This document shows, piece by piece, positions 7,851 through 59,197 of a stretch of DNA of 64,000 bases. Made by a program: the position numbers and the translations under genes. Source of the DNA: a virus. Its lineage: Duplodnaviria > Caudoviricetes. The notes below the pieces were generated by a model. It saw nothing but the letters and a program-made list of their open reading frames with translations. It had not been told where the DNA came from and ran no database searches. The stretch is from positions 1 through 64,000 of IMG/VR virus record IMGVR_UViG_3300044212_000014. One strand, 5' to 3'. Each line of letters opens with the position of its first letter. The first letter of the stretch is position 1.

Positions 7851-10800
7851 TTGGCTAATATATATTTAGACAGGGTTCAACAATATACGGGTGACTTCAA
7901 TGGTGTCCCCCAGTATGGCGACGGCGGTTATATCGACACCGCTGAAAATAGCTTCTTATATGGGCTAGGTGGCTCCCTAAATCAACTTGGTACATATACA
8001 GATCAAAGCCTTGGTATGGGAGCTGGTATGGCGGATTTTGGCTCCGACTTAATGACAGGCAGAACGCCTCGTCGTGAGTACAGCTGGAACGATATGCAAG
8101 AACACCCTCTGGATTATGCTACAGACCCAAATGGATTACTCTCTAGCATTGCGTCAATGGCAGGTTCATCACTTCCCGGAACTGTGGCAACATTAGGGGC
8201 GACAGCTCTTATTGGGGCTACGGGTGGTGCGGCGGCGGCCCCATTAGCGGCGGCAGTTGCAGAGGGTAGTACGCTCGCCAGAGCATTGACTATTGGGGGT
8301 AAAGTTGCTAGTAGTGTTATGGGAGCCGCTGTTGGGGGCGGCATAGACTCCGCTATAGAAGGTGGTCAGAGCTATCAGCAGGCTATCCAACAAGGTCAGT
8401 CACAAGACCAAGCTCGGCAGGCAATGGACACTACATTTGAAGGTAACGTAGCATTGTCAACCGCAGAAAACTTAATCGGCGTTGGGATGTTAAAAAATGC
8501 CGCTGGCGTTGGCTCTCGCTTATTAGGGAGAGAAGTCGCAGGTGCCGCAGAAAGCGAAGGTTCAAACCTATTAAATGCACTTGCAGATTTCGGTGATAAA
8601 AACTTCGCTACCCGTATGGCAACAAGAGGAATCCCCGGCTCTTTGGCAGAAGGGTATACAGAAGGGTTACAGAATGAAATACAGAACTATGCGGTAAATG
8701 GGACTGATATAAACTACAACCCCTTAAATATGGATGACGATTCTAAGACACAGATGGCACAAGCATTCTTTGGTATGTTACCTACTGGTGCTGTTGGTGC
8801 TGTGGGAAGATCAAGAAGAGGAAACGTGGTAGAATCTTCGCCGGAAGAAGGCCCAATAGAACAAGTGGCTCCTCAGATAGCCCAGCAAGTAGCTCCTGTT
8901 GAAGGAGAAATAAATGACAATATTTCTCAGCCAATAGATAATGCTCCGATTGAAGGGGAAGTATCAACAGACCAAGACGCTCAACCATATTCATTTAACG
9001 ATGAATTGCAGAACTACATTGCGAATCCAACGGAACGTGACCTATCAGAACGTGAATCATATAACGGAAACCAAGCGGACGAAATGGCCTATAATCAAGC
9101 ATTAGCAAACATGGCTAATGATAATAATATTGGGCAAGACGTTTTAAATAAAGATACTGTGCAAGAGGGAGATAGGGATGCAATCGCCAATCAGCTTGTA
9201 CAGTCTCAAGAACTATCTGGGATAAATGATATTGATACGGCAAGAAACGTTGCTGATCTCATGATTCAGAGGAACAGTAGCGACAATCTCCGTAACGAAG
9301 CACAATCATTATTACAGCAAAAAGCAGATATGGGACTAACTATATCTGATAATGAAACCCAAAATGCGGCTAAGGCGAATCCTGACTCTGTCGTCGTAGA
9401 CCAAACCAGAAATGATATCCGAAGCGCAAAAGAAAGAGAGACGTTAACTCCTTCTCAGAGGGTAGATAGAGCAAGAGAATTAATTCAAAACGACGTGGCT
9501 GAAAAGGGTGTGAATAGTGAGTTCTATACTGGTAATAAGAAACTATCCGATAACGCTAAACAAAGACTAGATAATTTGAATGTTTCTCCCGAAAACTCTG
9601 CTATCACAAGAGAAATTGCCACACAAAATGCTCAGGTAGACCAGCAGACACAAGCTGAAAATACCGCAAAGCTAAAACAATATGTGCCAGAGATACAGAA
9701 TAGCCTTCTTAACGAAGGTGTTAATAGTAAATATTATGTCCCCAATGGAGATATTAGCAAATTATCCCCAGAGGTGGCTAATACATTACAGGTAAATGGG
9801 GAAATAAACCCTCATATCTCCGACCGTATTACGAAACTTAGCAAAAACGCAGAACGGAAGCAGAACGCTGAAACAGAACAAGCCACAAAAGAACAGGCCC
9901 TTAATAAAGATTTATCGCTCGCTCAAAACATTTCTAATATAAATAGCTTTGGGATATCTTTAGACCCGAATAAGCTAAAGAAAATGAGTCCGTCCAAAAG
10001 GAAGAAAGCTATTGATTCCGCAAATAATAAAATAAGTACTCGTAAAGAACGGGCAGATGTTGACTTACAAAGCGGGTTATCCCCAGAACGTAACTTAGAA
10101 GTGCAGGAAAATGATACAACCAAAAGTATTGTAAACCATATAGCTTCTTTATCGAGCAACCCAGAGTCAGTAGAAAAAGCAATAAACAATATGACGGATA
10201 AATATTTAAAATACCAGAAGTTAAACTGGTCGCCAGTCTTATCTAAGTTTGAAAAAGGCAAAAGAGATTCTGCCCAAAAAGCCATTGTTAAATATATGAA
10301 CTACCGAGTTGGTAAAGAACCTTTCGTAAAGAGAGCAGTCGAACAACAACAAGCAGAGGAAGTTAGAACAGCAAACGAAAAAATACAGAAAGAAATGGCT
10401 AAGCAACATATTGTAAACCCTAAACAGACTGCTACAAAGTCGGTTCTATATGGCGCACTACAGGAAATACTGGGAAAAGACAGCAACAACAATAACAAAC
10501 GAATGTCCGTAATGGCTCGGCTATTTAATGACCCTCGAAATGTATTCAAAGAATATTTGCCAAGAGCTATGTCGGTATATGATCTAGCTGATAAAGCCCG
10601 TAGAAGAATGGAAGATACCGTTCAGCGGTATAACGGTAAATTCTCTGATATATACCAAGGATTAGGAAAAAAACATACTGACGAGTTGAATAAACTTGTA
10701 TTATACGCAGATCAAATTCACCGCGATCCAGTTCAGGTAGTGGGATTAGATGACGGTACTCACCTCGTCCTAACAAAGGACTCGTATATCGAACATTTTG

Positions 10801-13944: not shown

Positions 13945-14275
13945 TATTTTAGAAAAAGGGAAGGGGATTCTCCAAAGCGCCGTATTAAAAATGACACAGA
14001 TACAGAAACCGCTATTATGGATAGCCGTAACATACGTGTTTGTCCTATTGCTAATAATTGTGGTTTGGATTTCATTCTGGTTTATTGATTACGCGCAATC
14101 TGGGGTAGCCAACTTACAGATTCTATTATCATTCTTTAATTCAATGAAAGACCCGACCATGGTTGGCTGTGTAACATTTATTCTAGGTCTATTTACAGAC
14201 AGAGATCATGACGGGGTGTTGGACATTAACGAAGAGGAATACGGAGGTAATAATGTACAAAGTAATAGACATTAG
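13934..14275 (+). CDS. Putative holin
   Basis: Two hydrophobic segments, acidic C-terminal DRDHDGVLD, immediately upstream of the endolysin. Confidence 0.6.
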   Translation: MMNNILEKGKGILQSAVLKMTQIQKPLLWIAVTYVFVLLLIIVVWISFWFIDYAQSGVANLQILLSFFNSMKDPTMVGCVTFILGLFTDRDHDGVLDINEEEYGGNNVQSNRH

Positions 14276-14846
14276 TGATTGGCAAGAAGGGATTAGTTTC
14301 CAGAGCATTGTGGACGATGGTATAAATGGAGTTATTATAAAGATAACAGAAGGCACCAGCATCACAGATAACTTCCATTCTTTTTTACAATCAGCCAAAG
14401 AATATAATATTCCGTGGGGAGTATACTGCTACGCTCACGCTCAAAACGTAGATGAAGCTACCGAGGAAGCAAACGAGGTGTTATATATCTTACAGGGAGA
14501 GGTACCCCCTATGGGTATATGGTATGACGTAGAAGACCCAGAATGCTTCGAAGATGGAGTAGACACAACCGCGGTATGCTCTGCTTTTATTGTGTATTGT
14601 AACGCCGCAGGTTATAAAGCTGGAATTTATACTTCGTCATTAAAATGTACCGCATACATGACAAACTCTATCAGACCAGACCTATTAGCTGATTATGTGA
14701 ACTATTGGATTGCCGATTATCGGGGATACAATGGGTTTAAACAGTCTTTCCCGTATAACGCCGTAGCTGGGTGGCAATATACAGAATCATATAACCTAGA
14801 TGGTAAAAATGTTGATATGAGTTATTGGTACGCCGAGCTAGAATAA
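14253..14846 (+). CDS. Endolysin, GH25 muramidase
   Basis: VIDISDWQ, GVYCY, WYDVE and WQYT motifs of glycosyl hydrolase family 25; GGAGG RBS. Confidence 0.9.
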   Translation: MYKVIDISDWQEGISFQSIVDDGINGVIIKITEGTSITDNFHSFLQSAKEYNIPWGVYCYAHAQNVDEATEEANEVLYILQGEVPPMGIWYDVEDPECFEDGVDTTAVCSAFIVYCNAAGYKAGIYTSSLKCTAYMTNSIRPDLLADYVNYWIADYRGYNGFKQSFPYNAVAGWQYTESYNLDGKNVDMSYWYAELE

Positions 14847-15340: not shown

Positions 15341-15463
15341 CTCACAAGGGCGTACAACGAGTTATTGTTATTTGGGCATTAGATTATACCTAAGATATAG
15401 TAGACATGCTTTACTAGCCCTTCCAGTAAGGAAAACAGACAAAAAACAGCATTCAGTGCTTTT

Positions 15464-15489
15464 ACCCTCCCGTAAAAAGGAGGGTTTTT
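15464..15489 (+). terminator. Rho-independent terminator ending the lysis operon
   Basis: ACCCTCC-loop-GGAGGGT followed by TTTT. Confidence 0.75.
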
Positions 15490-15518
15490 ATTTGTCTGTA
15501 AAACTTTTAAAATAATAC

Positions 15519-15547
15519 TTGACAAAATGTTGTTTTTGTGTTATAAT
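15519..15547 (+). promoter_or_regulatory. sigmaA/sigma70 consensus promoter
   Basis: TTGACA-17 bp-TATAAT with extended TG. Confidence 0.85.
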
Positions 15548-15644
15548 ATGTTATGTAAAGAGATAAAATAGGATAAAACTATATATTGTATATTGACAGT
15601 AAAATAAGTGACGAAAAATCAATATATAGAATAAAATAAAATAC

Positions 15645-15673
15645 TTGACAAAAGATTTGTTTTATGGTATAAT
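15645..15673 (+). promoter_or_regulatory. sigmaA/sigma70 consensus promoter driving tRNA-Leu and the mini-tmRNA
   Basis: TTGACA-17 bp-TATAAT with extended TG. Confidence 0.85.
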
Positions 15674-15685
15674 ATAACTAACCGT

Positions 15686-15763
15686 GGGAGCATGGTGCAA
15701 CTGGCAGACACAACTGGTTTAAGCCCAGTACAATTAAGAGTTCGAATCTCTTTGCTCCTACCA
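15686..15763 (+). tRNA. tRNA-Leu(TAA) with a short variable region
   Basis: Acceptor GGGAGCA/TGCTCCT-A-CCA, anticodon arm ACTGG-tTTAAgc-CCAGT, T arm AAGAG-TTCGAAT-CTCTT. Confidence 0.9.
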
Positions 15764-15766
15764 CGC

Positions 15767-15850
15767 GGGGACGTGAATGGTTTCGACATGGAATAATGCC
15801 GCTTGACGGAGATTCTATGGACAAGGGTTCGAATCCCTTCGTCTCCACCA
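15767..15850 (+). ncRNA. Minimal tmRNA-like RNA: tRNA-like domain only, with no tag reading frame
   Basis: Acceptor GGGGACG/CGTCTCC-A-CCA with the G3.U70 alanine determinant, tmRNA-type unpaired D loop ending TTTCGAC, helix ATGGAAT/ATTCTAT closed by a short hairpin, GGAC linker, canonical T arm; only 84 nt long. Confidence 0.8.
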
Positions 15851-16304
15851 ACAAAAAAATTGAATAAAGCCTCATCGGTAGAAAGGTTTACTTATAAGTG
15901 AGGAAGATACGTGGCGAAGAGATGCAAACCGCTTAAAAATAACATTTCGGAATTAACACTCCGAGGAATTGCCGTTAGATGGTGGGGGAGTTTCCCTGTT
16001 TTATGATTGCTGGATAGAGAAAGATATTCAGCGCCCATCCTAGATGTAACCGTCCTGTTGACCATTGGTCAGGCAAGGAACGCGAAACTTAGTTGAGTTA
16101 CGAGATAAAGGCAGACCTAGGCTCGTTATTAGCGTTTAATCATACTTCAAACTGAAATACGGAGTATCCTTGTTCCCCCATTAGTGGGGGGCAAGTATCA
16201 CCTTCTCCTAAAGCCGGAGTACCTACAGAGCCTTTCCCAAATCCCTTAGACCTTAATCAATAAAAGAATTAAAACCCGTCCCTTCCGTCACTTGAACTTA
16301 GTCC

Positions 16305-16333
16305 TTGACAAATCACTTAGGGTGTGGTATAAT
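16305..16333 (+). promoter_or_regulatory. sigmaA promoter for the replication module
   Basis: TTGACA-17 bp-TATAAT with extended TG. Confidence 0.85.
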
Positions 16334-16378
16334 ACAGATATTCGAGACATGAAGTTATCAGAGAAAAGGAGATACAGG

Positions 16379-16609
16379 ATGGATACAAGACAAAGACGGA
16401 GAAGATACCCAAAGGGAGATTCCTTTCATAAAGGACTAACGCACGAGGTTAGAAAACAGCACATTCACTACATGACGGATGACCAGTATTTAAAAATAAC
16501 AAAATGCCAAGACAAGGGTTGCCCAATATTCTCTGGTTTTAGGTATTGCGACGCAGAAAGATATTTAAAACGGTATTACGTATATGGATGGAATGGAGAA
16601 AAAATATGA
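16379..16609 (+). CDS. Small basic hypothetical protein
   Basis: AGGAGA RBS; its stop overlaps the dnaE start. Confidence 0.55.
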   Translation: MDTRQRRRRYPKGDSFHKGLTHEVRKQHIHYMTDDQYLKITKCQDKGCPIFSGFRYCDAERYLKRYYVYGWNGEKI

Positions 16610-19473
16610 ATGAGTTTACCTGTAACTTTCACACACATACTGACTTTTCAATACACGATGGTTTTTCTAAAATACCAGAGCTTGTTGGTTACGCCAAAGA
16701 ACTTGGGTATACCTCATTAGCTATAACAGACCACGGGACAATGACAGGAGCAATATCTTTTTATGAAGAATGTAAAAAACAGGGAATAAAACCCATTATT
16801 GGTTGCGAATGTTATTTCACAATGGACATAGATGCTAAAGGAGACACATACCATTTAATATTACTTGCAAAAGATTTACAAGGTTATCGTAATTTAATGC
16901 GTATTGATACATATTCTCACGAGCATTTTTATCGTAAGCCAAGAATTAGTTTCGATATCTTAGAAAAATACCACGAAGGTATTGTTTGTACAACAGCTTG
17001 TATAGCTGGCCCGTTATCTAGCGATTTAAAAGATTACATTATGTCACGGTTAATATCTATATTTGGTGAAGACTTATATATAGAAATACAACCTCACGAC
17101 TTTGAAGAACAAAAAGTGTATAATTATACATTTATATCTCAATATCCCGAAGTTAAAAAGATAATCACACTCGATAGTCACTACGTTTGCAAAGATGATA
17201 CCCAATATCATAGACTTTGGCTAGATTTAGATGACGATGCTGAGTATTATTCTTCTAGTGATTATTACCTTATGGGTACAGATGAAATTGTAAGTAAGCT
17301 CTCTTACATGGAGTCATCCGATATACAAGATATGATTAAAAATACAAAAGAGTTGGAAGATAAGTTTAACTTAGAAATACCATTTGGTGAACAGCACTAT
17401 CCTGTGTTCTGCGAAGACCCTGAAAGATATGTTAGAGATAAGATGAATGCTGGTTGGGTTCAAAAGGGAATTTCCATGTTGCCAAATCACACTAAATACA
17501 GAGAGCAGGCAAATCATGAACTAGAAGTATTAAGGAAAGTCCATTATTTTAATTATTTCTGTATTGTTAACGACATGTTGAAATTCTGCGAAGACAACAA
17601 TATTCCAACTGGCATAGGCCGTGGTAGCGTAGGGGGGTGTCTAGTTGCTTATCTTATGGGCATTACAAAGGTAGACCCAATTAAATACAATTTGGTATTC
17701 GAACGGTTTACCAACCTAGAACGTGTAACTCCATGTGACATTGATACTGACGTAAGTCAAGGTAAACGACAAGAGCTTATTGAATATATCAAAAGTAAAT
17801 ATGGGGAAGCGTATCCCGTTAGAACCGTCGGAACCTGTGAAGACAAGGCCGCTGTTCAAGCCTCTGCTAGGTCACTTGATATTGACCCTACCATATATAA
17901 GAAAATGAGTAAGAATATAAACACGGTAGAAGATATGCCAGAAAAAACGGCAAGCGATAAACGATGGAAACAGGTGGCAATGAAGTTCAGAGGACACGTA
18001 CAGAACTATGGTAAACATCCATCTGCTATGTTGGTATCGCCTGAGGATATTTGTAAGTGGAGTCCAGTAGAAAAGCAGAAAGACGATTATGTTGTTTGTT
18101 ATGACTTCCACCAGCTAGAAGACCAAGGGTTATTAAAACTCGATGTTCTTGGTCTAAAGACCCTTGACATAATTGAAGACACAAAGAGACGGGCGGGAAT
18201 AGATACTGATATTTCCCAATTTCCAGACTTAGATTCACCTACTTGTGCCATGTTAGCAAAAGGAGACACAGAAGGATGTTTCCAAATAGAAAGTAATGTA
18301 ATGACTCCGATAGCAATGAGAATGAACGTTAGGGGAATGGAAGACTTGGCAACCGTCGTCGCTCTTGGTCGCCCCGGCCCTTTAGATTCTGGAATGGTAG
18401 AAACATTTTTAAAACGCCGGAATAAACAACTTCCTACCACCTACGACATTCCCGACCTAGAACCGTTACTTAAAGACACTGAGGGAGTTATTATATATCA
18501 GGAACAGATTATGAAGATTGTTCAGGTAATATGTGGATATTCCTTAGGGGAAGCAGATAACCTTCGTCGTATTATAGGGCGTAAGGTAGTAGATGAAATG
18601 AACCCCGTTGTCGAGGATATGATTCGTAGGGGTATAGAAAAGGGACATACAAGAGAACAGATGGTAAAACTAACTGATGATATAAAAACATTCGCGCTTT
18701 ATGGATTTAACCTATCCCATTCCTTAGCTTACGGAAAAACGGCGTGGGTTACATCATACCTTAAATGTCACTACCCAGCGGCATTCATGGCCTCATTGTT
18801 AGATTACAACTGTAAAGATAAACCGAAGTTAGCCACTTATATTGTCTACTGCCAGAACCATAATATACGTATCCTTCCACCTAGGGTAAACCATCACAAC
18901 TGCTACTCAGATTATGACGAAGATGGCCCTTATATCGTTCTTGGACTAAACTGTATCGCTGGCGTTGGGAACGTATCTATTGATTCCTCAGATAGTGACT
19001 TTGAGGCATTTTTGGAAAAGAACATAAACGTTAATAAGAAAGCTCTCGGTAGTATGGTTAGGGCTGGTGTATTTAGTGGCAATAGAGATATGATGTTACA
19101 GTATATAGATTGGATGAAAGACAAGAGAAAGTCTAAGGGAGAGTTTACATATGTACCAACACGATATGATGATGACATGGAACAATCCAAAGTAATTGGA
19201 GTTAGTTTTGGTGATGTCCTTAGTAAATATGACTTGTCTATAGTAGACGGGATAAGTACGTTTGGAGTCGAAGTATTAGAAGTTAAGGGAAGAAAGACAA
19301 AGACCGGAAAGCCAATGGCATTCGTTAAAGTAAAAGACTCCAAGTTCGTTAAGGACTTTGTTATCTTTAGCGCAGATTATAAATACATAAAGACACACAA
19401 GGTTTATATCATGAGAGTTCGTAATAATCGCATCTTTGAATTTGTTGAAGCTATGCCACTTGACAAAACGTAA
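16606..19473 (+). CDS. dnaE: DNA polymerase III alpha subunit (family C)
   Basis: PHP domain (HTHTDFS..DG, AITDHG, PIIGCE), GIGRGSVGG, PCDIDTD catalytic motif, KLDVLGL, FNLSHS; start inferred at MNEFTCNFH. Confidence 0.95.
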   Translation: MNEFTCNFHTHTDFSIHDGFSKIPELVGYAKELGYTSLAITDHGTMTGAISFYEECKKQGIKPIIGCECYFTMDIDAKGDTYHLILLAKDLQGYRNLMRIDTYSHEHFYRKPRISFDILEKYHEGIVCTTACIAGPLSSDLKDYIMSRLISIFGEDLYIEIQPHDFEEQKVYNYTFISQYPEVKKIITLDSHYVCKDDTQYHRLWLDLDDDAEYYSSSDYYLMGTDEIVSKLSYMESSDIQDMIKNTKELEDKFNLEIPFGEQHYPVFCEDPERYVRDKMNAGWVQKGISMLPNHTKYREQANHELEVLRKVHYFNYFCIVNDMLKFCEDNNIPTGIGRGSVGGCLVAYLMGITKVDPIKYNLVFERFTNLERVTPCDIDTDVSQGKRQELIEYIKSKYGEAYPVRTVGTCEDKAAVQASARSLDIDPTIYKKMSKNINTVEDMPEKTASDKRWKQVAMKFRGHVQNYGKHPSAMLVSPEDICKWSPVEKQKDDYVVCYDFHQLEDQGLLKLDVLGLKTLDIIEDTKRRAGIDTDISQFPDLDSPTCAMLAKGDTEGCFQIESNVMTPIAMRMNVRGMEDLATVVALGRPGPLDSGMVETFLKRRNKQLPTTYDIPDLEPLLKDTEGVIIYQEQIMKIVQVICGYSLGEADNLRRIIGRKVVDEMNPVVEDMIRRGIEKGHTREQMVKLTDDIKTFALYGFNLSHSLAYGKTAWVTSYLKCHYPAAFMASLLDYNCKDKPKLATYIVYCQNHNIRILPPRVNHHNCYSDYDEDGPYIVLGLNCIAGVGNVSIDSSDSDFEAFLEKNINVNKKALGSMVRAGVFSGNRDMMLQYIDWMKDKRKSKGEFTYVPTRYDDDMEQSKVIGVSFGDVLSKYDLSIVDGISTFGVEVLEVKGRKTKTGKPMAFVKVKDSKFVKDFVIFSADYKYIKTHKVYIMRVRNNRIFEFVEAMPLDKT

Positions 19474-21340: not shown

Positions 21341-23323
21341 ATGAACCTAAGACAAACGATTATTGCTAAAGTTGATTTGCCAAGTTTTATATCGCAAGAA
21401 TCAGGGGTTGAGTTACATAGGTCGTCAAACGGGTTCCGATGCGCTTGTCCCATTCATGGCTCTGGCAATGAAACGACAATGTTCATTGATGATAACGGTG
21501 GCTATTACTGTTACTCTTGCGGGTCTGGTGGTAGTGTAATCAACTTTCTTTCGGAGTACGAACATATAAGTTATAGCTCTGCGCAAGAAAAGCTAGCCTA
21601 TATGTTAAACATTGATTTGGATATCGACGGTGATTATGCACAACAGAAAGAGATAGAAAACAGATACGAAGAAAGAAAGAACATTGACAAACGAAGTATT
21701 TCCGTCATGAGAGATTATCTCACGAAAAAGAGGATGTTCACGGACGATACTATTAATGCTTTTGAGCTTGGTGTATATCACGATAAGAAATTAACAATAC
21801 CTTTGCTAGATCAAAATGGAAGAACAGTTGCTTTGGCTTGGCGGTCGTTTGAAGAAAGTGGGCCCAAATATGTAAACAGCAAGAATAACCTTCTGTACGA
21901 TAAGTCTTGTTTCTTATTTAACCTTGATAAAGCAAGAAGGTTAATTAGAGATAAGGTATATATCGTCGAAGGATACATGGATGCCATGTCAGGCCACCAA
22001 ATGGGACTTCCAACGGTAGCATATTGCGGAAGTGAGATACACAAAGACCAGATTGTATCACTATCACAATATTTACAGAAGGATACCAGTATTATTATCT
22101 GCCCTGATAATGACGACGCTGGGATGGATAGGACTCCCCTCGTGTCAGAGATCATTTCAAAAAGATATGTCCCTGAAAGACAGGTAAGAGTTATCTGTGT
22201 ACCCGACGGAATAAAGGACATGAACGACATGCTGGTAGCTGGCATAAATCCGGCAGATTTACCGTCAGAAGACATTAGTAAGTTTGTTTTGAGGCGCATC
22301 CTTAATAAATGTAAAACGATAGAGCAAGAGTACTCAAAAGCGGAAGAGTTTTTTAGGACAGTATCTAGTCAGCTTATAAAACTGGATATAATCCATATGT
22401 TATCAGAACGCTGGGGGAAAGAGTTTGATGACCTAAAAAAGACATTCTCAGCAGTAGGTGAGGACACAGAATCCATATTACAAGAAGCGTCAAACGTAGA
22501 TGATTGTATCGCAGACCTACGACAGATATATGAGTCTGGGGGATACCCAACACACTTCCAACAAATTGATAACTGTATTCATAAGGTAGAAAAGAAACAG
22601 GTAGTTATCGTAGGGGCTTGTGCTGGTTGTGGTAAGTCTAACTTTGCTATAGAGTATATGTTAAGAGCTATATGCCACAATAAACAACGTGTTATATTCT
22701 TCTCTCTCGAAATGCCAAAGGGCAAACTCATGGAGAGAATAATTGCCCAGTTGTTAAAAGTGCCAGTTCCAGATGTAGAAAACTTAATATTACAGGGAAA
22801 CCCGTTAGTATTAAAAATACTAGACCTGTTACGCAAGAAATTAATTGTGTTTGATGGTAACTCTATGGACATGGAAGGTATTGCGAGGAGAATAGATATC
22901 GTCAATGCCAAAGAACTTCTTGGTGGCCCAGTTGATATGGTGTTTGTTGATTACTTCGGCTATGTAAAGGGTACGTCTGATTTCGAGGGTGCGTCTAATG
23001 CCGCTAGGGAAATGAAGGGTATCGCGAAAAGTAGAAACATTATATTCGTTATGTTAAGCCAGTTAAACCGTAGTGGTAATGAATACAGCGAACCAACGAT
23101 GCAACAGTTAAAACTTACGGGAGACTTAGAAGCGTCTGGAGATATCGTAATGTTATTGTGGCGACCAGAGAAAGACCCTAACTTAGCACTTGCTGATAGA
23201 CAGGAGCTAGAGAATGTGACTAGGTTAAAGATATGCAAAGCCAGAGATGGTATGTATGGCTCCAATATGATACAGTTTAAGTATAACAAACAGGAATCAC
23301 GACTAGAAGAATGTTACATGTAG
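21341..23323 (+). CDS. Primase-helicase (CHC2 Zn finger, TOPRIM, DnaB-like helicase)
   Basis: CACPIH...YYCYSCG, IVEGYMD, PDNDDAG, Walker A GACAGCGKS, VFVDYFG, LSQLNR. Confidence 0.92.
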   Translation: MNLRQTIIAKVDLPSFISQESGVELHRSSNGFRCACPIHGSGNETTMFIDDNGGYYCYSCGSGGSVINFLSEYEHISYSSAQEKLAYMLNIDLDIDGDYAQQKEIENRYEERKNIDKRSISVMRDYLTKKRMFTDDTINAFELGVYHDKKLTIPLLDQNGRTVALAWRSFEESGPKYVNSKNNLLYDKSCFLFNLDKARRLIRDKVYIVEGYMDAMSGHQMGLPTVAYCGSEIHKDQIVSLSQYLQKDTSIIICPDNDDAGMDRTPLVSEIISKRYVPERQVRVICVPDGIKDMNDMLVAGINPADLPSEDISKFVLRRILNKCKTIEQEYSKAEEFFRTVSSQLIKLDIIHMLSERWGKEFDDLKKTFSAVGEDTESILQEASNVDDCIADLRQIYESGGYPTHFQQIDNCIHKVEKKQVVIVGACAGCGKSNFAIEYMLRAICHNKQRVIFFSLEMPKGKLMERIIAQLLKVPVPDVENLILQGNPLVLKILDLLRKKLIVFDGNSMDMEGIARRIDIVNAKELLGGPVDMVFVDYFGYVKGTSDFEGASNAAREMKGIAKSRNIIFVMLSQLNRSGNEYSEPTMQQLKLTGDLEASGDIVMLLWRPEKDPNLALADRQELENVTRLKICKARDGMYGSNMIQFKYNKQESRLEECYM

Positions 23324-23330
23324 AAAAGAC

Positions 23331-23359
23331 TTGACAAAACGTTAAAAATGTGGTATAAT
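23331..23359 (+). promoter_or_regulatory. sigmaA promoter (duplicated at 31100-31128)
   Basis: TTGACA-17 bp-TATAAT with extended TG. Confidence 0.85.
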
Positions 23360-23379
23360 GTATTCATGGAGGTAAGGAA

Positions 23380-24042
23380 ATGCCATATACAATACCTGAG
23401 TTCGAAAATTACATATTATATGATAACCTAGATGTTTTTAGCAAGACGTCTGGTAGGTTTTTAAGCGCAGAGGTGGTAACACTGTGCAACGGCAAAACTA
23501 GAAAGCATTTTACTAGGAACTCTCTTAAGAAATATATCCCCATAGATGATAAGTATATTAAAATCCCTGGTTTTAACGGGGAATATGGGATATCAAAAGA
23601 TGGTGAGGTTTATAGCTTTAAAACATTTAGGGTATTAAAATCATACCCCAACAAATATCGTCGCGGATATGTATATATCATACTGAGCCTCAATGGGAAA
23701 CCAAAAACTTGCAAGGTACATAGGTTAGTAGCATTAACATACATACCAAATCCAAGTGGTAAGGAGTGCGTTAACCATATTAATGGAAATGTACAGGATA
23801 ACAGTGTCGATAATTTGGAATGGTGTACAGTTAAAGAAAACAACCTTTGGAATGTTAGTAGAGGCGTTGCTAATGGTGGTAACCATAAAAAATGTTATCT
23901 ATACACCAAGTCCGGAGAGTTTGTTGGTTCGTTTCGCTCTATTAGAAAGGCTAGCGAATACGTCAAGTCTATTGGGTGTAGCGGATATGATGATATTAGG
24001 AAATTAAAATATAATAAATATTACACGTTGGAGGTGCGTTAA
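23380..24042 (+). CDS. HNH homing endonuclease (NUMOD4/HNH_3 type)
   Basis: IPGF.GEYGISKDG.V.S, KVHRLVA..YIPNP....VNHINGN..DN.V.NLEW.T..EN. Confidence 0.9.
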   Translation: MPYTIPEFENYILYDNLDVFSKTSGRFLSAEVVTLCNGKTRKHFTRNSLKKYIPIDDKYIKIPGFNGEYGISKDGEVYSFKTFRVLKSYPNKYRRGYVYIILSLNGKPKTCKVHRLVALTYIPNPSGKECVNHINGNVQDNSVDNLEWCTVKENNLWNVSRGVANGGNHKKCYLYTKSGEFVGSFRSIRKASEYVKSIGCSGYDDIRKLKYNKYYTLEVR

Positions 24043-24927
24043 TTGCCACTAAGTAGCTATTTTTGTCCCGACGGCGGGAGAATCAAAATTGAAGATTGTT
24101 TAAAAGAATGTAGATTAAAAGGTAAGATGAACCCAATAACCGGAATGGACTATGTTACTTGCGGGAGGTGTTTATCTATACCGACATTAAGAGCCGTTTC
24201 CGAACAGAGAAGTTGGACTGGCAAACCATCCACTACTCAGTTGTTACGAGGAACGAGAGAGGCATATTTAACTCTTACGAGAGAATATGCAATCGACCCC
24301 AAAAGTATGATGTTTGCTCTTCACGGCACAAACACTCATGCGAGACTCGAAGACGGCATGTCAGAAGAGGACTTGGGGGAACAGCGGCTGGATGACGGAG
24401 TGTCCACTGGAGCATTTGACTACTACTCAGATGAAGACGGGGGAACGCTATTCGACTATAAGACGTACTCTTCATATGTTTGTGGAAAGTATATGGGAAT
24501 AGGGAGCAGGAAGGAACTAATAGGCCATTACAAGAATGGTAAACCTAGATTTCAGTCAGTAAGAACTTATGGTAATGCAAAGCACGACCTAGACCTAGCC
24601 ATACAGTTAAACGATTACCGGATGAAAATACAAAAGGTTCTTAAAAAGCCAGTAGCAAACATGGTTTGTGAGATGATTGTAAGAGACGGTGGCACGTATA
24701 TGGCTAAGAATAGAGGGGTAGATGATACTGCATACCTCATTAAGGTTGGTAAAATAAGTGATATTTGGGTTGAGAGGTATATGAAACGAAAAGCAAACGA
24801 TTTAATTTCTGCGCTAGAAACTGGGAGAATGCCGCCACCATGCAGACCACATGAATGCTGGCACGGTAGAAAATGCAGAGACTTCTGCCCAGTTAATATG
24901 TATTGTGACGCATACAAAGGAGAATAA
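24043..24927 (+). CDS. Cas4/RecB-like PD-(D/E)XK exonuclease with a probable Fe-S cluster
   Basis: GAFD...LFDYKT motif, Q...Y, Cys residues at both termini (CRPHEC...KCRDFC...YC). Confidence 0.75.
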   Translation: MPLSSYFCPDGGRIKIEDCLKECRLKGKMNPITGMDYVTCGRCLSIPTLRAVSEQRSWTGKPSTTQLLRGTREAYLTLTREYAIDPKSMMFALHGTNTHARLEDGMSEEDLGEQRLDDGVSTGAFDYYSDEDGGTLFDYKTYSSYVCGKYMGIGSRKELIGHYKNGKPRFQSVRTYGNAKHDLDLAIQLNDYRMKIQKVLKKPVANMVCEMIVRDGGTYMAKNRGVDDTAYLIKVGKISDIWVERYMKRKANDLISALETGRMPPPCRPHECWHGRKCRDFCPVNMYCDAYKGE

Positions 24928-24928
24928 C

Positions 24929-25195
24929 ATGGATAAAGACATCTTAGCAGAATTTGAGAAAGAATTAAAGTCTGGTATTAAAATTGGGATTAACATGAAA
25001 GAGAATAACGACAAGGTTGAGTGTGGCATTATCGGTGATAAAGAGTATTCTCCTCAGCTTGTACTAACCTTGTTGATCATCTCCATTGCTAATCTTATGC
25101 AGATAGACCCAAGCGATCTGTTAGACGCGTGTGTTTCTGCTCGCAAGAAAGATGGTATTGACTTGTCAGACCAGTTCGAACATCTTATTAACTAA
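24929..25195 (+). CDS. Hypothetical protein
   Basis: AGGAGA RBS before the ATG at 24929. Confidence 0.55.
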   Translation: MDKDILAEFEKELKSGIKIGINMKENNDKVECGIIGDKEYSPQLVLTLLIISIANLMQIDPSDLLDACVSARKKDGIDLSDQFEHLIN

Positions 25196-25857
25196 TGGAT
25201 GAGTGCGAAGTAAGAAGTAATTGTAGGAAGAGTTATGATTGCGATTGGTGCGATTACTATAGCGAATATTCCCCAATAAACATTAATATTAAATGCAAAA
25301 GACAGATAGAAAATACAAAAATTCGTAGAGAGCAGAGGAAAGTGAAAAGAATTTCCGATGCCTCTAAGAGGGGAAGGTCAAACAGAAGGAACGGACGTAA
25401 GGCAGAACGAGACGTTGAAAATCTATTAAACGAACTGGGGTTAGATGCCTCAAGAACTCCTATGTCCGGCGCACTTAAAACAGCAAACCTCATACCTCAA
25501 TTAAAAGACCATGTGTCCGGTGATATAAGAATAAAGTATTTAGACAAAGAGCTTATAGTTGAATGCAAAAGGAATATTCATTCGGATAGTTGGTATAAAC
25601 TTACAGAAAAAGGTTTAATACATATAGATGGGTTTTGCTATGGTCTTACAAAAGAGTTATTCGAATATTTGGTAAACGGACTACTAAGTGGGGAATGTAT
25701 TGATATCCCAGACAACAAATTTAAGATGTTGCATAAATATTTCGACCAAGATAACTCAGATATCGTCGTTGTTACTAGGCCATGGCACGACCCCCTGTTC
25801 TTCTTAAAAGAAAAAACATTTGAATTATTCGGAGGTAATATAAATCATGATAAGTAG
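25195..25857 (+). CDS. Holliday junction resolvase-like PD-(D/E)XK nuclease
   Basis: G...ERDV..LL, SGAL, GDIRI...IVECKR. Confidence 0.7.
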   Translation: MDECEVRSNCRKSYDCDWCDYYSEYSPININIKCKRQIENTKIRREQRKVKRISDASKRGRSNRRNGRKAERDVENLLNELGLDASRTPMSGALKTANLIPQLKDHVSGDIRIKYLDKELIVECKRNIHSDSWYKLTEKGLIHIDGFCYGLTKELFEYLVNGLLSGECIDIPDNKFKMLHKYFDQDNSDIVVVTRPWHDPLFFLKEKTFELFGGNINHDK

Positions 25858-26095
25858 CGAAAATAGAATGTCGAGAATTGAACCTACGTCGCTTTATATC
25901 TCTAGCGTTAGCGAGAAAGACCAGCATGGAATTGACCGTTTAGTCGCAACTCGCATTATGGCTTTAAATGCAACGACTCCTAAGCCTATCGTGGTAAAGA
26001 CGTTCGCTATCGGAGACTTTGACAACGGGGTAAAAATAGAAACTTCCGAACGTCTTTTGGAAGTAACTAAAGATGCCATGGAGGATATAGGATAA
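25847..26095 (+). CDS. Hypothetical protein
   Basis: Translationally coupled ORF. Confidence 0.5.
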   Translation: MISSENRMSRIEPTSLYISSVSEKDQHGIDRLVATRIMALNATTPKPIVVKTFAIGDFDNGVKIETSERLLEVTKDAMEDIG

Positions 26096-26532
26096 TGCCT
26101 CCGGCATATGAAGAGTTGGTAAGCCAATTCGAAGAAATAAAGTATAGATACGAACAACTCACGGATACAGATGTGTTAGAGGCATTCTCTCTCATGAGAG
26201 ATTCCTCTTCACTACTGGCAAGTTACGACACGATGGTAGCGGAGTCATACAAACTAACGGCACTTACCGAAAGACAAGCTAGGGCGGTAGAGGCCAGAAA
26301 AAGTATAGAACTTTCTGTTAAACCGACGGAAGGCGCGAGAAGAGCAACCGCTGATGAAGAAGTCGTATCGGCGTGGAATAAATATATATCGGTAGCTACA
26401 AGTCAGAAATATATAGAAGCCAACGCAAAGTTCCTTAGTAGAGTATATTTCGATGCCAAGATGATAACTGAGAATTGTTATCGAAAGGAAAGGCCGGCAG
26501 TAGGAACAGACCGTATTGTTGGTAGAACGTAA
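26095..26532 (+). CDS. Hypothetical helical protein
   Basis: Translationally coupled ORF. Confidence 0.55.
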   Translation: MPPAYEELVSQFEEIKYRYEQLTDTDVLEAFSLMRDSSSLLASYDTMVAESYKLTALTERQARAVEARKSIELSVKPTEGARRATADEEVVSAWNKYISVATSQKYIEANAKFLSRVYFDAKMITENCYRKERPAVGTDRIVGRT

Positions 26533-26549
26533 TCAGCCTAGGAGGTTTT

Positions 26550-27071
26550 ATGCCAAGAACAAGAAAAAATGAAACTTATTCTGTAGATGATTTAAAAGTA
26601 ACTAAATATGAACCATATACGCCAGAGGCCCCGAAGGTGAAGGTAAAGTTTATAAAAGAAAGACCCGACTCTAAGGCTCCTGAATATAAGACGGATGGCT
26701 CGTTTGCTTTTGACCTGTACTCCGATAGGGACTGTACTGTTGTTGGTAATAAACCTACACTAATTTCTTTGGGGGTAAAAGTTGAAATTCCATCTGGATA
26801 TGGTATGTTAATTATTCCTAGGTCATCCATTGGGAGCAAAACTCCCCTTCGTCAGTCAAATTCAGTTGGCCTAATTGATAGTGATTACCGTGGTGTTGTT
26901 ATGGTAATGTATGAATCAAACAGAGATATTGCTGGTTCGACTATAGTTCGTAGAGGGGATAGAATAGCGCAGGGATTTCTAATCCCATATGTAAATGTTG
27001 ACTTTGTAGAAGCAGACGAATTAAGCGAGACAGAAAGGGGTACTGGTGGATTTGGTTCTACTGGTAGATAG
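26550..27071 (+). CDS. dut: Trimeric dUTPase
   Basis: AFDL, PRSS, GLIDSDYRG, DRIAQ, RGTGGFGSTG motifs. Confidence 0.95.
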   Translation: MPRTRKNETYSVDDLKVTKYEPYTPEAPKVKVKFIKERPDSKAPEYKTDGSFAFDLYSDRDCTVVGNKPTLISLGVKVEIPSGYGMLIIPRSSIGSKTPLRQSNSVGLIDSDYRGVVMVMYESNRDIAGSTIVRRGDRIAQGFLIPYVNVDFVEADELSETERGTGGFGSTGR

Positions 27072-27080
27072 GAGAACGAT

Positions 27081-27288
27081 ATGTGTGTAACTAGAGTGCA
27101 ACTATTTTTTATGGTAGCAGGATTCATTGCTGGTCTTGTGTCCCTATCTGGTGTTATATACCATCTTGTTATGACATTTCGATGGAATGATATTGTAGCG
27201 TGGAGTGGTATGTTATCGTCTTATATTGTTTGAGGTATCCGACCTATTTAAGCCAGACTTTGAAGATAATGACATGGAGGATAAATAA
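27081..27288 (+). pseudogene. Small membrane protein, frameshifted relative to copy 2 (34850-35056)
   Basis: Extra C near 27220 (TCGTCTTAT vs TCGTTTAT) gives a TGA at 27231-27233. Confidence 0.7.
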
Positions 27289-27289
27289 T

Positions 27290-27647
27290 ATGAAAGTACC
27301 AGAACATTACGTAGAATATTTCGAAAACAGAAGAAAAAGGTGTCGTTGTTTGCAAGTTAAAAAACTGCTTTACCGTTAGGAAGTGCGCTATTGACCATCT
27401 GAGCAAAATGGGTGACTGGGCGATTAGAGATGCTTTCTCGGCATACTCCGCTAGCGTAGACGAAAATAAACAGCAAAGAATCGGTATTGCTCATTTAGCC
27501 GACGGTGATATCTGGGACTCTCGCACTGGTCGTAAAGTGGCAAAGACGAAACTTGAAACGCACGTAAGTAACTATTTCTTGAAAGTATTAGATAGCATTA
27601 CCAATGATGCGTTACAGGTCGTAACTTGCTTTTTAACGGAGGTGTAG
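27290..27647 (+). pseudogene. Hypothetical protein, frameshifted relative to copy 2 (35058-35414)
   Basis: GAAAACAGAAG vs GAAAATGAAG: a 1-bp insertion near 27329 leads to an early TAG. Confidence 0.7.
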
Positions 27648-27651
27648 TCCA

Positions 27652-27945
27652 TTGAATGTTATTGGATATGACAACTCAGGTAAGAAGAAAAAAGCGACGA
27701 AAGAAACGAACGAATGGTTTGACGAACATTACGGTGGAACAAGTGATGAAATTCAACCAATAGAATTTATGCAATCTCAATTTTCAGAAGAAGCGTTTGT
27801 TGGCGCTATCTTGTTTAATATAGTTAAGTACTCTTCACGGCTCGGGAAAAAGGATTCCCCTTTAGAGGAAGCGCGGAAGATACTACGATATTCCCAATGG
27901 TTAGTTAAGGTACTAGAGGGAGAAACAATAGACCCAAGGGTTTAA
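27652..27945 (+). CDS. DUF3310/SaV-like protein
   Basis: HY....IQPIEF...F....NIVKY..RLGKK....E.RK...Y..WL. Confidence 0.8.
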   Translation: MNVIGYDNSGKKKKATKETNEWFDEHYGGTSDEIQPIEFMQSQFSEEAFVGAILFNIVKYSSRLGKKDSPLEEARKILRYSQWLVKVLEGETIDPRV

Positions 27946-27976
27946 ATATAAAATTATGTTTTATTGAAGGGGGTTT

Positions 27977-28291
27977 TTGATGCCGAAGTTATTGGCAATC
28001 CTCTCACTATTATTCGTTTTCGCAATGCCCGTTTATGGGATGCAGGTTAGATGTACTGCATATACAACTACTGAGAACACGGGCATTATGGCTAACGGTA
28101 TGGAAGCGCAGGTCGGATATGTGGCTTGTGACTTCCTTCCCTTAGGTACTGTCATATACATAGACGGTGCTAGGTACATAGTAGGAGATAGGATAGGAGA
28201 CGGAACAAACAACCATATTGATATTGTTTTTAACAGTTACGACGAAGCAATAAACTTTGGTGTGCAGTATTTAGATATGGAGGTAGCATAA
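27977..28291 (+). CDS. Secreted 3D-domain (MltA-like) protein
   Basis: Signal peptide, then TAY...MANG...VACD.LPLGT.IYI.G..Y.V.DR...HIDI. Confidence 0.85.
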   Translation: MMPKLLAILSLLFVFAMPVYGMQVRCTAYTTTENTGIMANGMEAQVGYVACDFLPLGTVIYIDGARYIVGDRIGDGTNNHIDIVFNSYDEAINFGVQYLDMEVA

Positions 28292-29092
28292 TTGAATGAG
28301 ACGGACATGATAAGTAAAGCGTACCTACCTCACGTAATGAGGACTAGGGTTATTGGAGATAAAGGTGCGCTGGCTGTCTTATCTGATATACATGAGGGTG
28401 CAAACAACAGGAAATATTTACAAGATGCCGTGTCGTTCTTGTTATCGCTAGGGCCTCGATGTAAAGTTGTTATCGGTGGAGATAGTACCAATACCATAAC
28501 ACGGAATAGCAAGGGAATACCTATCGAAGAATGGGCTAGCGGGGATAAACAAATATTTTCCCTCGTTGATGATATAAAGCCATTGTATGACTCAGGACAG
28601 ATCATAGGGATTACATCTGGTAATCACACGAGGAGAGCATATGACAGCACATTTATAACGATAGAAGCCATGATCGCAAGCATACTGGGCGATAGGTCAT
28701 TATATAAGGGTTCTATGGGTATTGTATATTTCAACGTAAATAAAAATTGTTACGTCCACCATATTTTACATAAACATAGGGCTACGGAAGGTGCATATGA
28801 TTTCTTCTCGGCAGACGCTAACTGGTTCGAGCATAAGCATAAGCCAATGGTTCGCCCTAAGATAATGATTGACCATAACAAATATGAAAAGGTTCCCGTG
28901 GCTAAGAGATGTTGGGATATATACCAGTCTTCATTTCAGGATTATCCTGATTATGCCAAGGTCGCTGGATATAGACCTAGTGTCCCCGGATTTTATATTT
29001 GCGAAATGAGCGGAGATATTCATAATAGATCGCTTACCCCATATATGGATGGAACGTACCACGCACTTATTAATGGCGGTTATGTGTTTTAA
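28292..29092 (+). CDS. Calcineurin-like metallophosphoesterase
   Basis: SDIH.G, GGD, SGNH, H.H and HKH motifs. Confidence 0.8.
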   Translation: MNETDMISKAYLPHVMRTRVIGDKGALAVLSDIHEGANNRKYLQDAVSFLLSLGPRCKVVIGGDSTNTITRNSKGIPIEEWASGDKQIFSLVDDIKPLYDSGQIIGITSGNHTRRAYDSTFITIEAMIASILGDRSLYKGSMGIVYFNVNKNCYVHHILHKHRATEGAYDFFSADANWFEHKHKPMVRPKIMIDHNKYEKVPVAKRCWDIYQSSFQDYPDYAKVAGYRPSVPGFYICEMSGDIHNRSLTPYMDGTYHALINGGYVF

Positions 29093-29104
29093 GGAGAGAG
29101 TAAA

Positions 29105-29617
29105 ATGCCGAATTATCTTGATAGCCTAATAGATTCTTATGTTGATGATACGGAGCAAGATACGTACCAGTTACAAAAATATATCGTGGGCCTAATCGAC
29201 AAATATTCTTCCGAACAGATAGATGGTAAAGAGGCGTGTCGTAGCATATCAAATATTACACGTCGAGACGAGTGGATACAGGACGTAAATAGTAATAGAT
29301 TGAAAGAGAAAATAAAACAGAAATACTCGTTTGTCCGGTATGCAAAATCGCCTGAGGATATAATTATAGAGTGGGAAACCGCGGAAAAGATACTACATTT
29401 CCTTACGTGGTTACATTCTATAATTAATCACACTGATTGGTATATACTTACTCAGATGTCATTTAGGAAGATACCAGCTACTATGTTAGCAAGAGAAATG
29501 AACATACCAAGGGACACGATATATAAAAGACTTTCCGTTGTTAGGAATGTGGCTAAAGAGTTTATGCCATATTATGCGGAACAGTTCGGAGATATTAAAG
29601 AATATTTGGAGGACTAG
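29105..29617 (+). CDS. Putative transcription regulator with a C-terminal sigma-region-4-like HTH
   Basis: IPATMLAREMNIPRDTIYKRL HTH pattern. Confidence 0.6.
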   Translation: MPNYLDSLIDSYVDDTEQDTYQLQKYIVGLIDKYSSEQIDGKEACRSISNITRRDEWIQDVNSNRLKEKIKQKYSFVRYAKSPEDIIIEWETAEKILHFLTWLHSIINHTDWYILTQMSFRKIPATMLAREMNIPRDTIYKRLSVVRNVAKEFMPYYAEQFGDIKEYLED

Positions 29618-29739
29618 ACATGGACACGGTTAAAGCAGAAAAAGATTCTATAAAAGTATATGTATCAATACCACCGTTAAGTTCTGTATAATAATATAAC
29701 TAAAATAAAGGCAACAGTTCGTTAAAATGGAGGGAAAAT

Positions 29740-58468: not shown

Positions 58469-58542
58469 TGCGGGGTATTTTAATGGCAGAATACTAGGCT
58501 CATTCCCTAGTGACGAGTGTTCGACTCGCTCTCCCGCAACCA
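58469..58542 (+). tRNA. tRNA-CAT (Met or Ile2) with an atypical U37
   Basis: Acceptor TGCGGGG/TCCCGCA-A-CCA; CTAGG-ctCATtc-CCTAG. Confidence 0.8.
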
Positions 58543-58543
58543 T

Positions 58544-58618
58544 GCTTGTGTGGCGCAATGCTAGCGCAACTGACTTGTAATCAGTAGGTTGAAAGTTGGA
58601 ATCTTTCCACAAGCTCCA
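58544..58618 (+). tRNA. tRNA-Thr(TGT) with a C19-G56 elbow
   Basis: GCTTGTG/CACAAGC-T-CCA; ACTGA-ctTGTaa-TCAGT; D loop AATGCTA; T loop TTGGAAT. Confidence 0.85.
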
Positions 58619-58621
58619 TAC

Positions 58622-58696
58622 ACCTTGGTAGTTCAATGGTAGAGCGCCTGACTGTTAATCAGGAAGTTGTAGGTTCGAATCCTACCCTTGGTGCCA
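58622..58696 (+). tRNA. tRNA-Asn(GTT) with two U.U mismatches in the acceptor stem
   Basis: CCTGA-ctGTTaa-TCAGG; acceptor ACCTTGG/CCTTGGT-G-CCA. Confidence 0.8.
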
Positions 58697-58699
58697 CAT

Positions 58700-58773
58700 A
58701 GGGGAGTCGTTCAATGGCAGGACATGAGACTTTGACTCTCAGAATCTTAGTTCAATTCTAAGTTCCCCTTCCA
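58700..58773 (+). tRNA. tRNA-Gln(TTG)
   Basis: AGGGGAG/TTCCCCT-T-CCA; TGAGA-ctTTGac-TCTCA. Confidence 0.85.
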
Positions 58774-59104: not shown

Positions 59105-59108
59105 ACAT

Positions 59109-59194: not shown

Positions 59195-59197
59195 CAT

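Follow-up and report, generated by a model that had tools for sequence, protein, structure and literature searches.

Trans-translation is the main bacterial ribosome-rescue pathway and a drug target. Among described forms of its RNA, transfer-messenger RNA (tmRNA), the closest to the element considered here is that of Mycobacterium phage DS6A, listed as "TLD only" (tRNA-like domain only) by Hudson, Lau, and Williams in 2014 (PMC4131195). According to that paper and a later database paper, a molecule similar to that of DS6A, chargeable or not, strongly inhibits tmRNA in Escherichia coli (Mao et al. 2009), perhaps through titration of SmpB (PMC4131195, PMC11915505). The database paper, from 2025, repeats the DS6A case and adds plastid forms of ~65 bp that lack a coding sequence (CDS) (PMC11915505). 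The DS6A element (tmRNA Website ID 11587) was located at JN698994 28478–28560 (L141 1501–1583), with gp33 on one side and, on the other, a gene annotated as DNA polymerase III; it is unannotated in the GenBank record, and its Rfam score of 43.2 bits is below the cut-off of 47. DS6A also encodes an RtcB-like RNA ligase (gp76). No published description of such RNAs as a widespread phage class was found in the literature, and published work on phages yielded no test of the function of one in infection. The present analysis concerns an 84-nt element at positions 15767–15850 of a 64,000-nt stretch of phage DNA (the window), which forms positions 1 to 64,000 of IMG/VR record IMGVR_UViG_3300044212_000014. 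A preliminary description of the window had presented the element as a "mini-tmRNA", a complete TLD from which the tag reading frame and pseudoknots are missing, and this name (in short, mini) is kept below.

The mini-tmRNA and its parts in the window are as follows.

15767..15850, + strand: mini-tmRNA (TLD-only, tag-less), 84 nt; Rfam RF00023 76.3 bits, model R1 73.6 bits
15767–15773, + strand: acceptor 5′ strand, GGGGACG
15774–15787, + strand: D-loop analogue, UGAAUGGU plus UUCGAC
15788–15794 paired with 15812–15818, + strand: helix P2a (helix 2a), AUGGAAU/AUUCUAU, 7 bp
15795–15811, + strand: internal loops AAUG and AG, apical stem CCG/CGG (3 bp), and loop CUUGA
15819–15822, + strand: GGAC
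15823–15827 paired with 15835–15839, + strand: T stem, AAGGG/CCCUU
15828–15834, + strand: T loop, UUCGAAU
15840–15846, + strand: acceptor 3′ strand, CGUCUCC
15847–15850, + strand: A73 plus CCA (ACCA), encoded

Direct reading gave a 5′ half of GGGGACG ... GGUUUCGAC and a 3′ half consisting of GGAC, the T arm, and CGUCUCC-ACCA. The acceptor stem is paired at all seven positions, G3.U70 included, and the sole joiner of the two TLD halves is a 31-nt hairpin. The preliminary description had reported just this arrangement, with both tmRNA termini in normal order, G3.U70, an encoded CCA, and a joining hairpin of ~30 nt. The Rfam tmRNA model RF00023 (gathering cut-off, 47 bits) matched exactly 15767–15850 (76.3 bits, E 7e-28, model positions 1–374), with high posterior probabilities at both ends and with 304 interior model positions reduced to 13 nt, in agreement with the reported absence of tag frame and pseudoknots. 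None of the pseudoknots PK1–PK4 lies between the TLD halves, which are separated by the 31-nt hairpin only, and no conserved tag reading frame or resume codon was found in the mini-tmRNA; the frame GCC-GCU-UGA that it contains is not kept in other minis. R1, a covariance model built from an alignment (A3) of 37 other phage minis with the window element excluded, found the mini-tmRNA end to end as its single match on the 64-kb window (73.6 bits). The features of a TLD are all present (7-bp acceptor stem, G3.U70, A73, CCA, T arm, and D-loop analogue), and the layout is of the DS6A type, with TLD halves in standard order, a short helix-2 hairpin, and a length of 84 nt in a class of ~65–100 nt. 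The acceptor strand CGUCUCC also occurs in recovered Bacillus tmRNAs. The minimum free energy fold is ordinary (z −1.66), so it is homology and covariation, rather than thermodynamic stability, that support the element. Collectively, these results confirmed 15767–15850, at the level of sequence, as the predicted alanine-accepting, tRNA-like end of tmRNA without the tag-coding part.

Three other identities were considered and ruled out. A tRNA-Ala does not agree with the top Rfam match at 15767–15850 within the tRNA/tmRNA clan, which is tmRNA, and ARAGORN called neither a tRNA nor a tmRNA there; of the two programs named as checks in the preliminary description, Rfam was therefore positive and ARAGORN negative. 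A permuted two-piece tmRNA is at odds with the standard order of the halves, and the corresponding model (RF04321, tmRNA_permuted) scored 19.2 bits against a cut-off of 47. An attP site or ssrA 3′-end fragment, already dismissed together with the permuted form in the preliminary description, would not hold the 5′ half, which exists here and forms all seven acceptor pairs with its 3′ counterpart; this reading also does not fit because a domain search of the 74-kb record found no Phage_integrase (tyrosine integrase) or Resolvase domain.

The mini-tmRNA belongs to a large group of phage elements. The first search pattern had no requirement for pairing and specified just UUCGAC, GGAC, the T arm's G-C core, and a terminal CUCCACCA; it found 42 loci in IMG/VR, or 43 elements with the window's own. 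A perfect 7-bp GGGGNNG acceptor stem is present in 39 of these 43; the remaining four are two permuted tmRNAs, one end-cut locus, and one doubtful match. A looser pattern gave at least 119 viral loci, a scan with the window's acceptor stem matched 12 contigs from metagenomes and another 4 of viral origin, and filtering left at least 122 distinct minis of 67–97 nt with the segment layout of the window copy. G3.U70, A73, and CCA are strictly kept in 122 of 122, a set in which G1–G4 and the CUCCACCA end are fixed by the search pattern. Rfam called 18 of 20 other minis at 57–78 bits. Permuted tmRNA genes, matched via chance UUCGAC, were seen at L011 3600–3998 and L017 6412–6810; their tags are ANDDVYAVRQAA and ANDSVYAVRQAA, and each gene overlaps or abuts a tRNA-Arg(UCU). 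These genuine permuted genes differ in appearance from the window element. ARAGORN calls of a 324-nt and a permuted tmRNA at L014 and L035 were overcalls, and at L014 Rfam places an 83-nt mini only.

Covariation was assessed with segment-anchored counts and alignment A3, which were used instead of MAFFT alignments, in which the variable length of the D region led to misplacement of the 5′ acceptor strand. Among 33 minis for which pairing had not been required, the free positions (acceptor 5-68 and 6-67, T stem 49-65 and 50-64, and P2a 1–5) are paired in 27–33 of the 33, with 4–8 base combinations each, 4–6 of them standard pairs, and the observed pairing was reached by none of 1000 shuffles. 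In the same minis, helix 2a has 179 of 198 cells paired in register versus 73 of 198 when slid by one. In A3, restricted to sequences of equal D length and filtered for acceptor and T-stem pairing (helix 2a was left free), 98.9% of cells are paired versus 72.5% in shuffled alignments, and the covariation score is 0.726 versus 0.175 shuffled and at most 0.13 with partners slid. P2a, never a selection criterion, has its first five positions paired in 106–121 of the 122 minis. Recurrent in many minis are an internal loop on the 5′ side that is rich in A (typically UAAAGCC), a very small apical hairpin, and 3′ GGNAC, and the window copy follows the same helix-2 plan. Since R1 finds both the window element and the published DS6A element (59.6 bits), class membership is settled, and covariation across the minis places their structure under selection. 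To judge from these alignments, the minis are a large covarying class under structural selection.

Outside viral records, the mini pattern was run on 185,579 bacterial and archaeal species genomes (one per species) and returned 44 matches. Forty-two are the 3′ ends of ordinary tmRNAs of 352–418 nt, with a chance UUCGAC, no paired 5′ acceptor strand, and mostly canonical ...ALAA-type tags in the full-length RNA. The two true minis lie on a 1.6-kb contig of a Butyrivibrio metagenome-assembled genome and on a phage contig of 130 kb that is part of a Prochlorococcus single-cell assembly. By these counts, the mini form appears almost confined to phage DNA. Eleven of 20 other minis sit inside tRNA arrays, and in 20 of 38 mini-bearing records the mini is the only match above the tmRNA cut-off. 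Searches found no SmpB gene in the window phage and none in the 38 other mini-bearing viral records, including the eight that are at least 90% complete; RF-1/ArfB-type and Pth genes were likewise not found in this phage, and any partner of the mini-tmRNA would therefore be supplied by the host. Two further observations concern other viral contigs. A HEARO RNA (RF02033, 170.6 bits) lies at L027 794–1003 on the same 6.7-kb contig as an 89-nt mini-tmRNA. In L051 and L052, two distantly related viral contigs, ARAGORN called at 10175–10250, near the polymerase gene, a suppressor-type tRNA with anticodon UUA (reading UAA), which may hint at stop-codon recoding.

In its own genome, the mini-tmRNA is the one match to RF00023. 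The source record (74,271 bp, CheckV 100% complete, of which the window is the first 64 kb) contains no full-length tmRNA gene by this search, and it encodes a terminase, an SU10-type portal, an endolysin, and a DnaE polymerase. The surroundings of the element are given below.

14208–14846: GH25-like endolysin, upstream of the RNA island
15341–16545: RNA island free of open reading frames (ORFs), 1.2 kb, between the late (tail/lysis) and replication blocks
15464..15485, + strand: terminator-like hairpin, 7-bp stem with 5 G-C pairs, then the T run TTTTATTTGT
15519..15547, + strand: upstream promoter, sigma-A/sigma-70-type, TTGACA-17-TATAAT (12/12), TG-extended −10
15645..15673, + strand: proximal promoter, 12/12, TG-extended −10; the −10 ends 12 nt before tRNA-Leu
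15686..15763, + strand: tRNA-Leu (anticodon UAA) with encoded CCA; called by ARAGORN, Rfam tRNA model 49.8 bits
16034..16139, + strand: EGFOA RNA (RF02955), Rfam 61.6 bits versus a cut-off of 37.7; 183 nt downstream of the mini-tmRNA
16305..16333, + strand: third perfect promoter, opening the replication operon; right edge of the RNA island
16546–19473: DnaE-type DNA polymerase, after a small ORF, downstream of the island
15519, 15645, 16305, 19460, 23331, 31100, and 58110 (+ strand), 49518 and 55311 (− strand): the nine perfect promoters of the window

Upstream of the island lie genes for a very large tail-region protein, several lysis-type proteins, and a 159-aa protein, and the hairpin at 15464..15485 probably ends this late (tail/lysis) transcription unit. 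The polymerase gene is followed by those for a Rad52-family protein and a primase-helicase. The two consensus promoters and the 3-nt distance to tRNA-Leu noted in the preliminary description were both borne out: each promoter matches at 12 of 12 positions, and the spacer between the end of tRNA-Leu(UAA) at 15763 and the mini-tmRNA is CGC. The tRNA is probably co-transcribed with the mini-tmRNA, and the proximal promoter would give a very short leader from its predicted start. Perfect TTGACA-N17-TATAAT sites number nine in the window versus 0.01 expected by chance; most share the context TTGACAAAA...TGTGnTATAAT, and one of them precedes a second tRNA cluster (seven tRNAs at 58469–59274, flanked by terminase and the SU10-type portal). 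From its sequence, this set is evidently the phage's standard strong, stereotyped promoter for the host primary sigma factor.

Two other features of the window were noted. EGFOA RNAs form trimers and dimers and lie in intergenic regions of unusually large size (10.64898/2026.07.01.735769); the example here is clearly phage-borne. A regular partnership between EGFOA and minis was rejected, as none was found beside 20 other minis. The replication and other early genes lie in a tandem direct repeat of ~7.77 kb, at 22179–29947 and 29948–~37715. The two copies are near-identical for the first ~4.9 kb (one mismatch, offset 7769) and divergent after that, a 300-nt segment farther on matches at 93% identity (offset 7767), and ORF lengths recur (220, 294, 220, 173, 266, and 170 aa). 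The repeat reflects either true duplication or faulty assembly; in the latter case, the true genome would be ~66.5 kb.

The polymerase and endolysin have their nearest sequences among human-faecal phage proteins and phages of Bacillus, Moorella, and Clostridia. A large protein database contained many polymerase relatives of 42–65% identity, on contigs of ~55–76 kb. One of these, annotated as Megasphaera elsdenii (GCA_016899685.1), belongs to a prophage end that adjoins a repressor-like helix-turn-helix (HTH) gene, lepA, hemN, and rpsU, and other relatives adjoin the same host genes or a secretin gene. Judged from these matches, the element is carried by a gut-type phage with Megasphaera-infecting relatives, and the host is likely one of the Negativicutes, such as Megasphaera.

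Eight syntenic relatives (polymerase 42–65% identical) keep the order tail gene, lysin, small protein, polymerase, and have a spacer of 80–750 nt where the window phage has its RNA island. No tRNA, mini, or full-length tmRNA was found within 4 kb of the polymerase gene in any of the eight, as examined by R1 with filters off and ARAGORN, and for four also with Rfam (E ≤ 0.01). The island was therefore gained in this lineage and is not the leftover of a deletion; a full-length ssrA in relatives, which the preliminary description had named as the sign of a recent deletion, did not appear. IMG/VR polymerase relatives, at most 34% identical and too distant to inform, also had no mini within 4 kb. 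An exact-sequence scan of IMG/VR for the mini-tmRNA gave no match, as did its 3′ 28-mer in the 185,579 species genomes. The same form, which the preliminary description had expected to be sought in related phages, is absent from the eight syntenic relatives and present, identical at 84 of 84 positions, in an independent 2.8-kb metagenome contig (L125) that is 98.5% identical to the window. This contig has no substitution across 15615–16377 and 42 elsewhere in the 2.8-kb overlap; the EGFOA RNA at 16034–16139 is invariant, and the island differs only by one extra base in the A-run directly after CCA. The nearest other mini sequence is carried by three unrelated viral contigs of 33–43 kb (L127/L137/L139). 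Its 5′ strand and helix 2 start are common with the window copy and the rest is changed, a likeness that fits horizontal spread of ready-made minis. Relatives at 51–65% polymerase identity (L249, L251, L254, and L256) are temperate: in L249 (7100–8907), the polymerase is immediately followed by an HTH repressor and a tyrosine integrase, and other relatives are prophages that border at one end on lepA/hemN or ABC-transporter genes. In the window phage, Rad52 directly follows the polymerase and no integrase was found. From this comparison, the window phage looks like a derivative that lost a lysogeny module and gained the RNA island.

With modest confidence, the mini-tmRNA is taken to be a functional phage gene whose RNA would bind SmpB in competition with host tmRNA and so block or divert trans-translation in the host. 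The RNA would be transcribed early together with tRNA-Leu, cut by RNase P at G15767, and trimmed at its 3′ end to the encoded CCA. G3.U70 is the alanine identity mark, and through it and A73 host alanyl-tRNA synthetase (AlaRS) would charge the RNA with alanine. The SmpB globular domain binds the TLD, and TLD and SmpB together mimic a whole tRNA (PMC3929946); the mini-tmRNA would accordingly be expected to bind host SmpB and, once charged, EF-Tu. Because it contains no resume codon or tag frame, it would compete with host tmRNA for SmpB and for the empty A sites of stalled ribosomes, and ssrA tagging would be blocked or diverted during infection. Phage proteins made from broken or stalled messages would likely benefit by avoiding the tag and the proteolysis; or else the gain would be the shutdown of a phage-limiting rescue function of the host. 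The functions suggested in the preliminary description (SmpB sequestration or competition, and release without tagging) match those proposed for DS6A (PMC4131195).

Three points weigh against competition as the function. Several phages are reported to need trans-translation, so its inhibition is not an obvious benefit. The inhibition itself, as reported, was shown in E. coli with a similar RNA and not with the mini-tmRNA (PMC4131195). In addition, TLD fragments with SmpB are productive in peptidyl transfer in vitro (PMC3929946), a result that favours tag-less rescue or alanine tailing.

That productive role is the main rival and is regarded as possible but rather unlikely. In it, alanyl-mini with SmpB and EF-Tu would accept the nascent chain on stalled ribosomes, and either the ribosome would be freed without a degradation tag or, over repeated rounds, the chain would acquire a short alanine tail without any template; ribosomes would be recycled and the phage would keep its proteins. 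The charging marks G3.U70, A73, and CCA, kept in all 122 minis, would be needless in a pure SmpB sponge, since the inhibitory construct reportedly worked whether chargeable or not (PMC4131195). Retention of G3.U70 may, however, reflect the search patterns and descent from tmRNA. A TLD fragment with SmpB is reported to make polyalanine in vitro without mRNA (Shimizu and Ueda 2006, in PMC3929946). CDS-less organellar tmRNAs are found together with SmpB and are considered functional (PMC11915505). Minis also accompany phage tRNA arrays, which are translation-boosting gene sets. On the other hand, release of peptidyl-Ala-mini needs another factor, and the phage has no RF-1/ArfB-type or Pth gene by search; the sole in vivo result available also points to inhibition. 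A more specific form, regarded just as tentatively, makes the mini not a passive SmpB sponge but an active template-free alanine-tailing or rescue device that, charged by host AlaRS and accompanied by host SmpB and EF-Tu, would enter stalled ribosomes repeatedly, append one or more alanines, and leave no ssrA degron, with the conserved A-rich loop and mini-hairpin of helix 2 as a second functional site.

Compared with competition for SmpB, a role independent of SmpB is improbable. The RNA might serve as a tRNA-like decoy or sink for a host defence nuclease that attacks tRNA or tmRNA, for AlaRS, for RNase P, or for EF-Tu, or might donate alanine to a nonribosomal reaction. The position of the element inside tRNA arrays in many phages is compatible with this, and the A-rich loop and apical hairpin of helix 2, which exceed the 63-nt TLD crystallised with SmpB (PMC3929946), could bind another partner. 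Against it, the features that distinguish the element from a plain acceptor/T-arm minihelix, the tmRNA-specific D-loop analogue (GGUUUCGAC) and GGAC, sit in the SmpB-bound part of the TLD (PMC3929946).

It is very unlikely that the element is an inert remnant, whether a decaying tmRNA gene, the product of a recent internal deletion, or a fragment of the attP type. Island integration commonly leaves ssrA fragments behind (PMC4131195), and close relatives are temperate, one with integrase and repressor genes by the polymerase and others as prophages beside lepA. However, both halves of the mini-tmRNA are present in standard order and pair perfectly, covariation across the class indicates selection on structure, integrase and resolvase were not found in the record, the eight syntenic relatives have neither full nor partial ssrA within 4 kb of the polymerase gene, and no substitution separates the mini from that of the 98.5%-identical strain. 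A true tmRNA of minimal size that encodes a two-codon tag (AAUAAU-GCC-GCU-UGA in the hairpin, encoding Ala-Ala-stop after an A/U-rich stretch) is scarcely credible and was rejected for lack of conservation: the frame is present in the window sequence, and 2-aa Ala-Ala tags exist in Fermentibacterota tmRNAs (PMC11915505), but the nearest other mini has no in-frame stop, only 14 of 45 minis close an Ala-codon frame inside the hairpin and at inconsistent positions, and the codons lie within the 31-nt hairpin, 10 nt from the TLD, with no pseudoknot or single-stranded lead-in to the decoding centre, so the frame is treated as a coincidence.

If competition with host tmRNA is correct, a widespread natural phage RNA that plugs into trans-translation would constitute a new class of phage countermeasure against host translation quality control; if alanine tailing is correct, the phage would rewrite the outcome of host ribosome quality control. 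The mini class also provides a natural answer to the question of the smallest size at which an RNA derived from tmRNA is still retained by selection. The kind had been published as a single curiosity, that of DS6A, and the preliminary description overrated its novelty, TLD-only phage tmRNA having been in print since 2009/2014. What this element adds is a view of the class as large, conserved, and present almost exclusively on phage DNA. ARAGORN, commonly used to annotate phage tmRNA, misses the window element, and the mini came into this lineage within an RNA island that was acquired.

Comparison with canonical tmRNA (RF00023) places the mini-tmRNA at the two ends of that molecule, with agreement at each position of the TLD (the GGGG start, G3.U70, the UGGUUUCGAC D-loop analogue, GGAC, the GGGUUCGAAUCCC T arm, and the CUCCACCA end), and the two presumably have their partners (RNase P, AlaRS, SmpB, and EF-Tu) in common. 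Canonical tmRNA differs by ~290 nt that are absent here (helices 2b–2d, PK1–PK4, resume codon, tag frame, and stop); full-length bacterial tmRNAs retrieved for comparison measure 352–413 nt and have mostly ...ALAA-type tags. Without the mRNA-like domain, the mini-tmRNA is therefore incapable of the mRNA-switching half of trans-translation. Engineered TLDs resemble it in having their strands joined by a capped helix 2a (Thermus thermophilus 63-nt RNA, PDB 2CZJ; Shimizu and Ueda 2006), and such fragments are bound by SmpB, reach the ribosome together with EF-Tu, and allow polyalanine to be made without a template (PMC3929946); natural minis are ~15–20 nt longer, owing to the A-rich internal loop and the apical mini-hairpin. 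CDS-less organellar tmRNAs, known from jakobid mitochondria and from ~65-bp genes of Mallomonadaceae plastids (PMC11915505), are likewise natural reductions to the TLD that rely on SmpB from another genome. The organellar form is the cell's own and only tmRNA and presumably serves in rescue, whereas the phage mini would enter a cell already equipped with a full tmRNA and could thus act as a competitor.

The DS6A element is closest. Both it and the mini-tmRNA are phage-borne, ~83–84 nt long, and in standard order, with a complete acceptor stem containing G3.U70 and a T arm; the tag frame and pseudoknots are missing from each. Their halves are connected through the same series of helix-2a stem, A-rich internal loop, and small apical hairpin, and each element closes the late gene block and is followed directly by a gene with the annotation DNA polymerase III (DnaE-type in the window). 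They differ in host and composition, DS6A infecting an actinobacterium and its element being GC-rich; in sequence, the DS6A element having no encoded CCA and GCAC in place of GGAC; and in Rfam score, 43.2 bits (below the cut-off) versus 76.3. DS6A is temperate, with a tyrosine integrase, which was not found in the window phage record, and only the window copy stands beside a tRNA-Leu (3 nt away) and an EGFOA RNA. By its sequence and predicted structure, the window element is of the same kind as the published TLD-only tmRNA of DS6A, a kind that was already known.

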